Shown here: in pieces, positions 1 through 1,674 of the stretch | How positions within the stretch are numbered: the stretch's first letter is position 1 | How the letters are laid out: every line of letters begins with the position of its first letter | From: Escherichia coli | Lineage (GTDB): Bacteria > Pseudomonadota > Gammaproteobacteria > Enterobacterales > Enterobacteriaceae | Assembly (NCBI RefSeq): GCF_003334335.1 | Contig: NZ_QOWQ01000093.1 | DNA: 2,204 nucleotides | Strand: one strand, 5' to 3' | Program-made: the position numbers and the translations under genes | Notes under the pieces: generated by a model | Database searches by the model: none | What the model saw: the letters and a program-made list of their open reading frames with translations, nothing else | Told to the model about the DNA's origin: nothing

Positions 1-77
1 GCAACCAGCATTAGTGAAAATGAAATACCGACAATCACACACAGGACCTTTGCCGGCGTTATGAGTTTGTCTGACAT
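1..77 (-). CDS. Partial CDS, N-terminus only (ATG at 77-75, continues past window start). Begins MSDKLITPAKVLCVIVGISFSLMLVA: short polar N-terminus then a hydrophobic segment, so a membrane-anchored or secreted protein; candidate Rz-like i-spanin
   Basis: Hand translation of the minus strand. ATG at 77-75 is preceded by AAGGGG (88-83) at a 5-nt spacing, a plausible Shine-Dalgarno. The frame is open to the window edge. Codon first positions are G-rich (gac, gca, gtc, gtg, gtc, ggt, gtt). The spanin assignment is inference from position downstream of an endolysin and N-terminal topology only; only 25 codons are visible. Confidence 0.4.
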   Translation of the reverse strand, partial: MSDKLITPAKVLCVIVGISFSLMLV

Positions 78-79
78 CT

Positions 80-160
80 TTACCCCTTGATAGCAGTAAT
101 TAACTGGGCAACCACCCATAAAAACGGAATCAGCCAGACCAGCAAAAATTTCCAGTCCAT
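80..160 (-). CDS. Micro-ORF, 26 aa, MDWKFLLVWLIPFLWVVAQLITAIKG: a single predicted transmembrane helix; possible small membrane peptide, could be spurious
   Basis: ATG at 160-158 lies 11 nt after the stop of the Rha-like gene (TGA 174-172); stop TAA at 82-80. Strongly hydrophobic and Trp-rich. Weak Shine-Dalgarno (GAAGATGATAAAA upstream), so translation would need coupling. Its 3' end carries the Shine-Dalgarno of the next ORF. A T at codon position 2 throughout could generate this by chance. Confidence 0.2.
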   Translation of the reverse strand: MDWKFLLVWLIPFLWVVAQLITAIKG

Positions 161-171
161 TTTTATCATCT

Positions 172-867
172 TCATGCTGCGGTAGCTCTCCATGCAGCAA
201 GCAGACCAGCAATCCACTCAACACCTTTTGGGGTGAATTTAACCTGCGTAAAAGCATGACCATTGCCCGCCTCGCCCGTTTTCACGCTAAACCGCCCCGC
301 ATCCAGGTGATGCGAGTAAGGCGTCATTTTTCCAGCGAGGCGATACATTATTCCGTTCTCCAACAAAAACAGCCGGAAATCGGTTTCTTTGATACCGAGT
401 AACTTAGCAACTTCCCGGAATCCCATCAGACCAGATGCTTCAACATAGTTATCAACAAATTCAGCCTTCGGCGCTGCTATTGCCAGTTGATTTTCCAGCA
501 CTGCTTTCTGTTCAGCCAGTTTTGCCGCAAATCGCAACGCCTCAGGTAAAGTCCGGGGGATCTGAATACCATGCATCGCTTTGAGTCTTGCCAGCACAGA
601 ACGACGAACGGCCTTTGACTCCCTCATGCCAACGAGCATCATCTGGTCAAAATCCAGATCATAGTATGCCGTTCTTGTCTGGTTATTGTTTAACCGGAAT
701 TTTTTTCCGGTTCCATCAAGCTCTAGCTCATCCTCAATTTTTGCAAGAAACTTACGCGGTTCATGAGGGACTTCTCCGGCTTCTGCCCGGGCTGGATTAA
801 TAATGTTATTCAGAAAATCCAGACTACTCATGGATATTTCATGATCGACAGAAATCATCTCTTTCAT
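172..867 (-). CDS. Phage regulatory protein / antirepressor, Rha-like N-terminal domain plus KilA-C (ANT) C-terminal domain, 231 aa
   Basis: Complete ORF in the supplied track. Shine-Dalgarno AAGGA sits 7 nt upstream of ATG 867-865 (minus strand reads AAAAGGAATCAACC-ATG). The C-terminal half (LPEALRFAAKLAEQ...APKAEFVDNYVEASGLMGFREVAKLLGIKETDFRLFLLENGIMYR...GRFSVKTGEAGNGHAFTQVKFTPKGVEWIAGLL) matches my recollection of the KilA-C/ANT antirepressor domain. The N-terminal half (KFLAKIEDELE...YYDLDFDQMMLVGMRESKAVRRSVLARLKAM) resembles the Rha-family N-terminal domain. Both assignments are from memory, not a search. Confidence 0.85.
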   Translation of the reverse strand: MKEMISVDHEISMSSLDFLNNIINPARAEAGEVPHEPRKFLAKIEDELELDGTGKKFRLNNNQTRTAYYDLDFDQMMLVGMRESKAVRRSVLARLKAMHGIQIPRTLPEALRFAAKLAEQKAVLENQLAIAAPKAEFVDNYVEASGLMGFREVAKLLGIKETDFRLFLLENGIMYRLAGKMTPYSHHLDAGRFSVKTGEAGNGHAFTQVKFTPKGVEWIAGLLAAWRATAA

Positions 868-1013
868 GGTTGATTCCTTTTAGTGATGAACCCTGCGCAC
901 AGGAATAACCAGCCCAAAGAGGGTTAACCAGACCACTGCCGGTTATCCACCAGGGCTCATCCTGAAAGGTTCTTTGGTTTATTTACGCTTGTGCGAAGCG
1001 CAGAAATGACAAA

Positions 1014-1030
1014 GGCACCATTACGGTGCC
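1014..1030 (-). terminator. Small hairpin GGCACC-N5-GGTGCC; on the minus strand it is followed by TTTGTCATTTCT. Weak candidate terminator or RNA stability element downstream of the endolysin
   Basis: Seen directly: 6-bp perfect inverted repeat with a 5-nt loop, 110 nt downstream of the endolysin stop, with a T-rich but interrupted tail on the minus strand. The stem is short, so termination efficiency is doubtful. Confidence 0.25.
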
Positions 1031-1140
1031 TCTGCGTGAAATAATGTTCCTGACTTTATTCACTTACATTTTGCCAGCTCGCAGGATTTCGTGTTATCCG
1101 CCCGCGTTGGCCAACGTCATTTTTCAGCAAAATATTCTGC

Positions 1141-1674
1141 TTATCTGTCGATTCCCCAGCACGCCAGCGCGCTCTCCTGGTCTCGCCGGGATACCTGACC
1201 GTAACAGTTATTTGAGCGAATACGGCAGTCCCTGCCACCGTCCTTAATCCACCAGCGAATCGCTTCGCAGGCACCTTTTCGATCACCAGCATTAATTCGT
1301 CTGTAAAACGTCGACGGGAAACACTTACCGGGACCAATGTTGTACGGACAGAATGACGCGATCCCCGCTTTCTGGGGTTCGGTCAGCGGCACTCTGATGT
1401 TTTTCTCCACCCACGCCAGCGCTTTATCACGCTCAATGGCGTTAACCTGGTCGCATTTTTCCTTCGACAACTTCATGCCGGGGACGACAGGCTTACCATC
1501 CACCCGGGTGGCACCACGGCAGATGGTCCAGATACCTGCACCATCACGGTATGCCGTGGTGTGGTTACCTTCCTTTTCATCCAGAAACTGGTCGAGAATT
1601 TCAGGCGCAGAAGCCCCTGCGGCAATCAGCGCCAGAACGGCAGCCGACAGGCCGTATTTGATTTTTGCGTTCAT
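1141..1674 (-). CDS. SAR endolysin (phage-21 R-type lysozyme, T4-lysozyme-like muramidase), 177 aa
   Basis: Complete ORF. The N-terminus YGLSAAVLALIAAGASA is the Gly/Ala-rich weakly hydrophobic signal-anchor-release segment typical of SAR endolysins. The catalytic motif E-x8-D-x5-T is present at Glu35, Asp44 and Thr50 (EGNHTTAYRDGAGIWT), the same spacing as T4 lysozyme E11/D20/T26 and as I recall for phage 21 R. The whole protein closely resembles, from memory, the lysozymes of E. coli cryptic lambdoid prophages (RrrQ/RrrD type); this is not verified. Confidence 0.95.
   Translation of the reverse strand: MNAKIKYGLSAAVLALIAAGASAPEILDQFLDEKEGNHTTAYRDGAGIWTICRGATRVDGKPVVPGMKLSKEKCDQVNAIERDKALAWVEKNIRVPLTEPQKAGIASFCPYNIGPGKCFPSTFYRRINAGDRKGACEAIRWWIKDGGRDCRIRSNNCYGQVSRRDQESALACWGIDR

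Follow-up and report, generated by a model that had tools for sequence, protein, structure and literature searches.

Spanin genes (Rz/Rz1) are expected directly after the phage endolysin gene R. In a 2,204-nt stretch of Escherichia coli DNA (contig NZ_QOWQ01000093.1; hereafter, the window), R is followed instead by a 273-nt gap at positions 868–1140 and by a gene for an Ant-type protein with a KilAC domain, ant. The locus raises the questions of whether the spanin was displaced or lost and of what the gap contains. An original prediction, made from the letters of the window, had left insertion and loss side by side and had treated the gap as non-coding. The window is a portion of the late (lysis) operon of a lambdoid prophage of the Shiga toxin (Stx) phage type, and all genes bearing on these questions are on the minus strand. 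The reading considered probable here combines a displaced spanin with an inserted cassette whose pseudoknotted leader RNA would mask the Shine–Dalgarno (SD) sequence of ant.

Spanin genes and the inserted cassette

The Escherichia phage PhiR5_1 (PV340545.1; locus L001) was 99.5% identical to the window across all 2204 nt. Over window positions 1–1647, identity was 97% to several Stx1a-converting phages as well as to phage Lys8385Vzw, and parts of the window were contained in 4340 of 5426 complete E. coli genomes. PhiR5_1 has, in order, holin S, a gene of the DUF1327/YdfR family, R, the gap, the 231-aa gene (ant), four tiny open reading frames (ORFs), Rz, and terminase Nu1. Its Rz, of 155 aa, lies at L001 4727–4260, which corresponds to window −273 to −740, and starts approximately 270 nt beyond coordinate 1. 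Rz matched the Rz-like spanin family phrog_13 over its full length (2.1e-76, residues 1–155 against a 154-position profile). Rz1 (61 aa, L001 4507–4322, window −493 to −678) was found in the +1 frame within Rz and matched phrog_3198 at 1.3e-30; it begins MRELKMKLCALTLPLVVSAC and has the lipobox VSAC with its Cys. Homology to Rz, an embedded +1-frame Rz1, and a lipobox were thus all found at L001 4727–4260 and 4507–4322.

Similarly, Rz starts approximately 66 nt beyond window coordinate 1 in Lys8385Vzw, and in all close relatives checked, Rz/Rz1 were located within approximately 70–350 nt past that coordinate. In an E. coli chromosome to which the window aligned in two pieces, a 'lysis protein' is annotated after the KilAC gene, while ant is followed by Rz and rz1 in Stx2 phage 86 and by Rz in Min27. 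Moreover, Rz was present in 277 of 279 surveyed Stx phages (PMC8136144). Because Rz/Rz1 were intact in the relatives and were supported by this survey, it was concluded from sequence comparison that the spanin is displaced approximately 1.4 kb downstream by the inserted cassette and is not lost. The cassette and a cluster of tiny hydrophobic ORFs separate Rz/Rz1 from R, so that the spanin genes fall just outside the window, and their apparent absence is a window-edge effect. The statement of the original prediction that no Rz/Rz1 follows the endolysin was therefore correct inside the 2204 nt, but in all close relatives examined the genes follow past coordinate 1.

Loss of the spanin, or a diverged Rz in the ORF starting at 77, is very improbable. 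The window interior indeed has no Rz/Rz1-like ORF after R, this ORF starts with a segment resembling a membrane anchor, and in GenBank record AY838795 a coding sequence (CDS) over its position is labelled 'putative Rz', though in a different frame. However, the ORF ends after 43 codons in PhiR5_1 (L001 5077–4946) and matches phrog_4906 rather than Rz, and a full-length Rz with an embedded Rz1 lies downstream in all relatives checked, in line with the survey cited above. Compared with an i-spanin (approximately 130–160 aa, an N-terminal anchor, and a periplasmic coiled coil), the ORF has a hydrophobic segment only. No embedded or overlapping +1-frame lipoprotein with a lipobox Cys was found inside L001 4946–5077, and no Rz family was matched in the PHROG search. 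Furthermore, the same 43-aa ORF is present in PhiR12_1 (L003), which carries no ant. The original prediction had named this ORF as the only spanin candidate, to be checked as the start of a 130–160-aa coiled-coil protein with an embedded Rz1, and had named an unrelated protein as the contrary outcome; as read in PhiR5_1, an unrelated 43-aa protein is what was found. As a separate point of annotation, the 'putative Rz' CDS of phi-O153 (AY838795, L002 1–207) spans the small-ORF region without an ATG, and only its final residues (..NRMLSAFTVILLVVCSA) resemble an Rz N-terminus, so its annotated start is probably wrong.

Among relatives with nearly the same R gene, three arrangements were found between R and Rz. 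In phage 2H10, R directly overlaps Rz, and homology to the window stops at 1131. In an Stx2c phage (L010) and in PhiR12_1, homology runs from R as far as window position 1055 and picks up again at Rz, with small hydrophobic ORFs and no ant in between. The third arrangement, that of the window, is R, then terminator, leader, and ant, then small ORFs and Rz. The homology breakpoints against the ant-less relatives are window 1055 and ~78; therefore, the cassette proper is window ~78–1054. As delimited by sequence, the cassette is composed of a terminator-like hairpin, a structured leader of approximately 127 nt, the KilAC/Ant gene, and a 31-aa ORF, which is probably its 3′ end. The breakpoint at 1055 also divides the 273-nt gap into an 86-nt R-associated spacer and the 5′ control region of the cassette. 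Of the two explanations offered originally, insertion into the lysis cassette was thus the one borne out, and the suggested synteny comparison both recovered the R–ant–Rz order and located the insertion.

Many Stx phages (phage 86, Min27, VT2-Sakai) carry the annotated order R, gap, ant, Rz, as do Lys8385Vzw and an E. coli chromosome. As such GenBank records go back over two decades, the synteny was already known, and a lysis cassette split by ant between R and Rz is ordinary. The cassettes of phage 86 (NC_008464), Min27 (NC_010237), and VT2-Sakai (AP000363), which read S–R–ant–Rz/Rz1–bor, have the same gene order as the window, the same R–ant gap of approximately 270 nt (80–96% identical to that of the window), and, like the relatives of the window, an Ant-type gene between endolysin and spanin with Rz1 embedded in Rz. 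The window differs in carrying the 231-aa KilAC allele, whereas phage 86 and Min27 carry a 189-aa Ant (phrog_524), in having four tiny hydrophobic ORFs before Rz, and in having DUF1327 and DUF1823 genes between S and R.

Classical morons carry their own promoter and a downstream terminator. The cassette resembles a moron in that lambdoid phages that are otherwise colinear differ, with sharp breakpoints, in whether an extra gene lies between their conserved late genes. However, a simple scan found no sense-strand sigma-70-like site and no minus-strand terminator after ant, and the terminator that was found lies upstream of the cargo. The cassette is therefore unlike a classical moron, a concept attributed to Juhala et al. 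2000 where it is cited in PMC4104026, in its upstream terminator, its lack of a detectable promoter, and its shared structured leader.

Structure and covariation of the leader

No minus-strand ORF longer than 26 codons was found in the gap. The ORFs present are an 8-codon ATG ORF (1120–1094), a 5-codon ATG ORF (960–943), and a 26-codon GTG ORF (983–1063). The original description of a non-coding gap with only two trivial ORFs was accurate for both ATG ORFs, but the GTG ORF had been missed, and the gap is not empty, as it holds a conserved structured RNA module. At least 80% of the gap was found in 265 phage records (80–96% identity in Stx phages), and the sense strand is predicted to fold much more stably than shuffled sequences (z = −4.3; z = −4.45 for a 176-nt region of the window). 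Thus, the gap is not a chance feature. Its R-proximal spacer travels with R, while window 868–1054 travels with the cargo gene, as mosaic boundaries indicate.

Positions 876–1035 form a portable module in which, on the minus strand, the terminator-like hairpin is followed by a small hairpin (P0), an A/C-rich linker, and a long irregular hairpin in which the SD of ant is predicted to be paired (Table 1). An internal loop on the 3′ side of the long hairpin, GUGCG (896–900), immediately precedes the strand of the stem that leads to the SD and acts in the predicted fold as the receptor of the P0 loop, so forming a pseudoknot. The ant AUG, at 867–865, is spaced seven nt from the long hairpin. Copies of the leader were collected with the exact pattern CCTTTCAGGATGA, 55–85 nt, GGTTCATC, which was present on at least 120 IMG/VR contigs, with 39 distinct cores and 88 distinct extended sequences among the matches listed. 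In RNAfold predictions, 45 of 45 distinct cores shared the outer architecture with the SD paired, at −31 to −42 kcal/mol, and the window did likewise. The SD was accordingly placed in a CCUUU/AAAGG helix in all 45 cores and the window, with analogous pairing in the divergent copies described below.

The P0 stem varies among copies yet remains paired (GCGC/GCGC, GUGUC/GACAC, GUGCC/GGCAC, GCACC/GGUGC, and GCGU/ACGC). Likewise, the P0 loop and its receptor form Watson–Crick pairs in several versions, namely, UCACAC/GUGUGA, UCUCAC/GUGAGA, UCGCAC/GUGCGA, CGCAC/GUGCG (window), and CGCCC/GGGCG. A loop–receptor helix of 5–6 bp was found in 66 of 68 distinct sequences; one exception pairs via G-U, and the other is a mis-parsed hairpin. 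When the 19 distinct loop/receptor types were permuted, the mean helix was 3.82 ± 0.27 bp compared with 5.16 observed, and 0 of 2000 permutations reached the observed value. The consensus fold of the raw MAFFT alignment had given only the invariant outer stem, with the apical part misaligned, and it was replaced by per-sequence folds and anchor-based parsing. In the structural alignment A4, 95.5% of cells were paired in the structure including the pseudoknot, against 27–47% with the partners slid, and the pseudoknot columns 28 and 125 held AU (34), GC (30), UA (17), and GU (4).

A covariance model built from this alignment (R1) scored window 855–1015 at 105.4 bits on the minus strand (E 2.8e-24). 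Sense strands scored 97–171 bits and antisense strands 17–26 bits, and no antisense match was listed for the window. Four divergent copies lacking the exact pattern were recovered by the model as well. In these copies, the long stem is changed but paired, as in CAGAAAGUUGAGCCUG/CAGGCUCAAUUUUCUG and GGGUGAGCU/GGCUCACCC; loop and receptor are again complementary, with CCGCA/UGCGG and UCGCAU/AUGCGA among them as two new types; and each copy is preceded by a terminator. The pseudoknot occurs in at least seven covarying loop/receptor versions. At the level of sequence, the P0 stem, the pseudoknot, and the long stem were all shown to covary in support of an RNA structure, and the element is likely a genuine structured cis-acting RNA.

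An upstream hairpin is a regular companion of the leader. Of 106 distinct upstream flanks, 95 contain a hairpin with a T run ending 36–56 nt before CCTTTCAGG, and a strict scan confirmed such a terminator-like hairpin in another member, L014. Terminators from different contexts have related sequences (GCCTCG...CGGGGCTTTTTT), so the terminator is counted as part of the module. In the window, the hairpin at 1009–1035 has the stem GGCACC/GGUGCC and the tail UUUGUCAUUUCU and was found by a looser scan; canonical terminators occupy the homologous position in other members. The Min27-type hairpin has an uncompensated mismatch.

The leader was also considered as a coding sequence and rejected. The internal AUG in CAGGAUGA opens ORFs of 5–27 codons, and the frame is not kept because the core lengths vary between 78 and 85 nt; the 5-codon ATG ORF of the window, which lies within the long hairpin, has likewise no conserved frame. 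Several further features of the leader were observed. Its apical hairpin CCGG..UCGG, followed by CCUUUCUGUG, was flagged as terminator-like in two members (L011 2531–2550 and L014 2531–2549), and the 5′ CCGG has two possible downstream partners, which may represent an alternative fold. The 5′ strand of the main-type leader contains AGGAUG, a CsrA-like motif, twice. The Min27-type linker (L008) reads CACAACACAGAA and includes CACAACA, the consensus quoted for GcvB targets (PMC4104026).

Distribution, alternative readings, and proposed mode of action

A blastn search with the 868–1054 half recovered Stx phages carrying a different ant allele, P22-like Salmonella phages (ST104, SE1, and 101962B_sal5), in which the leader is located after Rz and upstream of a kilA-like gene, and Klebsiella phages, in which it follows tail genes and precedes a 'DNA binding protein' gene. 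When one genome of each species was scanned and the matches were filtered by the covariance model, members were also placed in Entomohabitans, Siccibacter, Phytobacter, Serratia, Yersinia, Citrobacter, Pantoea, Edwardsiella, and Arsenophonus. The outer leader sequences are invariant across Enterobacterales families. Eleven pattern matches outside Enterobacterales, in unrelated phyla, had no covariance-model support and were set aside as chance. The Stx-phage-type leader on NZ_JPLE01000286.1 (L157, 392 bp, 107.5 bits), which is filed as Xanthomonas pisi, probably reflects a contaminated assembly.

Immediately after the leader, 119 complete ORFs were read, and these belong to at least nine unrelated cargo families. 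These include KilA-N-type regulators (phrog_129 and phrog_1136), Ant (phrog_524), Rha-like regulators (phrog_518 and phrog_2657), the KilAC Ant of the window (phrog_63), two HNH endonuclease families (phrog_3593 and phrog_99), and a glycosyltransferase (phrog_1579). The loop/receptor type is independent of the cargo family. Moreover, multiple copies of the leader occur before different genes on the same contig, with three copies on L017 and two each on L090, L115, L135, L022, and L088. Lys8385Vzw has one leader before ant, ahead of Rz, and another before a Rha gene that lies after Rz. On the two contigs inspected, L017 and L135, the loop/receptor pairs differ between copies, as if cross-pairing were avoided.

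The whole window was compared with Rfam 15 (4227 other models plus C4, sar, IsrK, AsxR/AgvB, and pistol), and no match was obtained at E<=1. At E<=10, positions 840–1160 gave noise only (11–17 bits), and the Salmonella ST104 copy gave nothing. A literature search on conserved strings and keywords, the coverage of which leaves out most subscription journals, yielded no description of the leader. The leader of approximately 127 nt is, in our assessment, a well-supported SD-masking leader RNA that is apparently undescribed; its pseudoknot appears unusual, and its distribution appears portable and cargo-independent. It occurs in medically important and heavily studied phages, namely, Stx phages, P22-like Salmonella phages, and Klebsiella prophages. 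As it is common to unrelated cargo, it points to a generic, portable mode of expression for accessory genes within late operons, and it offers a testable handle on why antirepressor-type genes occupy lysis cassettes and how they are restrained.

Three other readings of the gap were weighed, and each was judged improbable to a similar degree. The gap might be a DNA-level control region, that is, a moron promoter/operator for ant with the inverted repeats as protein-binding sites. Morons classically have such a promoter, the cargo consists mostly of DNA-binding regulators that might autoregulate, and the outer stem sequences are invariant across hosts, as would hold for a binding site. However, a simple promoter scan gave no sigma-70-like site on the sense strand of the window or of two further members, and a terminator lies directly upstream. 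In addition, the helices stay paired as the sequence changes, with one pseudoknot position showing three Watson–Crick types; loop/receptor types do not follow the cargo family; and the covariance scores are strongly strand-asymmetric.

That the leader is a self-cleaving ribozyme or senses a ligand as a riboswitch, and is not simply a passive hairpin masking the SD, is about equally doubtful. The docking of a hairpin loop onto an internal loop recalls pistol ribozymes, and the invariant unpaired nucleotides (AGAA before CCUUU, and a bulged C), the invariance of the outer sequences across Enterobacterales families, and the use of one leader for unrelated cargo are all consistent with such a function. 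Nevertheless, no Rfam 15 ribozyme or riboswitch model matched, the apical half is variable in length and sequence, and the cargo suggests no metabolite.

It is similarly unlikely that the gap encodes a trans-acting small RNA (sRNA), either an RNA derived from the 3′ untranslated region of R and ending at 1009–1035 or an IsrK-like short transcript acting on the downstream leader. The conserved 86-nt spacer followed by a hairpin with a U-rich tail would suit such an RNA. Furthermore, Stx prophages are rich in Hfq-bound sRNAs near lysis genes (PMC4104026), and the antirepressor mRNA that Gifsy-1 makes by read-through is activated for translation by a short, terminated RNA (PMC4825925). Against this, no Rfam match was obtained, including AsxR/AgvB, IsrK, C4, and sar, no promoter was found, and the Min27-type hairpin carries the mismatch noted above. 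The described Pas and anti-sRNA genes are found on the upstream side of the holin, away from the gap, and the supplements of the study of Hfq by crosslinking and analysis of cDNA (CRAC), in the portion considered, list no entry for ECs1212–1214. The known Stx-prophage sRNAs AsxR/AgvB and PasA–D were also tried as candidates and rejected, being located between the stx or esterase gene and the holin.

Returning to the preferred reading of an SD-masking leader, the cassette is co-oriented with the surrounding late genes in each annotated case examined, and a simple scan of three members, the window among them, found no sigma-70-like sense-strand promoter between terminator and start codon. Under the proposed mechanism, ant would be transcribed only within the Q-antiterminated late transcript, with Q-modified polymerase passing the terminator of the module. 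Translation of ant would then be off or low, as the long hairpin would mask the SD and would be braced by the P0-loop pseudoknot. Full expression would require opening or cutting of the hairpin. That the leader gates translation by SD masking seems reasonably probable from the predicted folds. RNase III processing is the first guess for the trigger and, being drawn from analogy, is tentative; a bound factor, a small RNA, or a ligand would be the alternative.

Several points weigh against the combined reading. The presence of the spanin was read from relatives 97–99.5% identical to the window and not from the source's own sequence left of coordinate 1. The gating of ant is inferred from sequence comparison and predicted folds. 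The terminator-like hairpin of the window is weak and fails a strict intrinsic-terminator scan, and a simple promoter scan may miss a promoter that is weak or not of the sigma-70 type. Of the 17 pairs of the long stem, 16 never vary in alignment A4; since the sequences were collected by a pattern on that stem, this invariance is uninformative either way, and the covariation of the long stem comes from the four divergent copies, which were found with a structure-assuming model.

Precedents exist for the individual elements of the mechanism. The leader of lambda N comprises the nutL boxB hairpin and then an RNase III-sensitive hairpin that masks the N Shine–Dalgarno sequence. Both leaders thus present a small hairpin followed by a long irregular hairpin sequestering the SD of a phage regulatory gene on an antiterminated transcript. 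However, they share no sequence similarity, the small-hairpin loop pairs with the long hairpin in the window leader but binds N in lambda, and RNase III cleavage, which occurs in lambda, would be a hypothesis for the window leader. The ant genes of P1 and P22 are under tight post-transcriptional control by C4 RNA and sar RNA, respectively. These resemble the window leader in the RNA control of antirepressor genes and in short complementary segments that covary as specificity determinants. In contrast, C4 and sar are antisense regulators with Rfam models, neither of which matched, whereas the pairing in the window is intramolecular, and the window-type leader also precedes cargo other than ant (HNH endonucleases and a glycosyltransferase). 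In Gifsy-1, read-through of the IsrK terminator yields a translationally inactive antirepressor mRNA that is activated by a short RNA (PMC4825925). The IsrK–orf45–anrP system is comparable to the window in that a read-through mRNA structure silences an antirepressor-like gene of a lambdoid prophage. It differs in its alternative structures A/B, its trans-acting short isoform, and its coupling via orf45, and it adjoins a Q-like gene and not the lysis cassette; its Rfam model did not match the window.

A stronger proposal is that the ant-proximal half of the gap represents an undescribed, Enterobacterales-wide class of pseudoknotted leaders that are responsive switches, RNase III-processed or factor/ligand-bound, timing the translation of antirepressor/KilA/Rha-type and homing-endonuclease cargo in late operons. 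This proposal is speculative and was considered unlikely in its full extent. If true, such a switch in Stx phages would act back on the inactivation of the repressor, on how co-resident prophages are cross-induced, or on when lysis occurs.

Coding features and neighbouring genes

Table 1. Features of the window around the gap, with positions in the 2,204-nt sequence
Feature	Position	Strand	Properties
R endolysin, 177 aa	1141–1674	−	N-terminal hydrophobic segment resembling a signal-arrest-release (SAR) domain; phrog_7 endolysin E 5.6e-64
R-proximal spacer, 86 nt	1055–1140	−	Travels with R, also in ant-less phages; contains the 8-codon ATG ORF
Terminator-like hairpin with U-rich tail	1002–1035	−	5′ end of the ant cassette; GCAGAGGCACC GUAAU GGUGCCUUUGU
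P0 hairpin	984–1002	−	Loop CGCAC (991–995) pairs with receptor 896–900
Linker, A/C-rich	971–983	−	Between P0 and the long hairpin
Long irregular hairpin, ~90 nt	876–969	−	CCUUU (965–969) pairs with ant Shine–Dalgarno AAAGG (876–880)
Ant-type protein, 231 aa	172–867	−	C-terminal KilAC domain, PF03374 E 7.6e-28 (residues 125–224); phrog_63 Ant 1.3e-57
31-aa hydrophobic ORF	80–175	−	Overlaps the ant stop codon; CDS in PhiR5_1; weak phrog_6632 match 1.6e-4
ORF starting at 77	1–77	−	First 25 codons of a 43-aa hydrophobic ORF, not a spanin; begins MSDKLITPAKVLCVIVGISFSLMLV; phrog_4906 (unknown function) 4.5e-21

The 231-aa protein is named 'phage antirepressor KilAC domain-containing protein' in RefSeq. 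The original assignment to a Rha/KilA-C gene held for the KilAC domain, whereas its Rha-like part was unsupported; a Pfam scan at E<=10 gave no Rha match, and the best PHROG was Ant phrog_63 and not the Rha-like phrog_518. The experimentally studied antirepressor of phi24B was considered as the same gene and rejected, as it lies before qut and is a different gene. R is annotated as 'lysozyme R' in PhiR5_1 and as 'lysozyme' in E. coli genomes.

Upstream of R, a minus-strand DUF1327/YdfR-family gene (1994–2204) leaves the window edge, and its 3′ end is overlapped by an 86-aa plus-strand ORF (1786–2046; phrog_2572, annotated DUF1823), which is antisense in the late operon, between S and R. In PhiR5_1, the opposite-strand DUF1823 gene likewise lies between the DUF1327 gene and R. 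Because these two genes separate S from R, the holin is also not next to the endolysin. PADLOC gave no defence-system match for Ant, DUF1823, or the small ORFs.

The 26-codon GTG ORF of the gap starts MNK, which are the first three codons of a 72-aa ORF after R in the ant-less Stx2c phage, and then crosses the terminator-like hairpin and P0. Judging from this composition, it is probably a remnant of the junction rather than a gene. A membrane-anchored ORF had originally been placed only from 77 onward; an ORF does start there, but the 31-aa hydrophobic ORF at 175–80 had been overlooked. This 31-aa ORF is weakly similar (E 3e-4, suggestive only) to the C-terminal membrane segment of the same 72-aa ORF. 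Altogether, the space between ant and Rz holds four tiny hydrophobic ORFs of 31, 43, 38, and 28 aa (window 80–175 and 1–77; L001 4729–5175). The last of them ends ..IRWW and overlaps the Rz start, in the manner of the 72-aa ORF from an Stx2c phage. PhiR12_1, which has no ant, carries the 43-aa and 38-aa ORFs with their order swapped.

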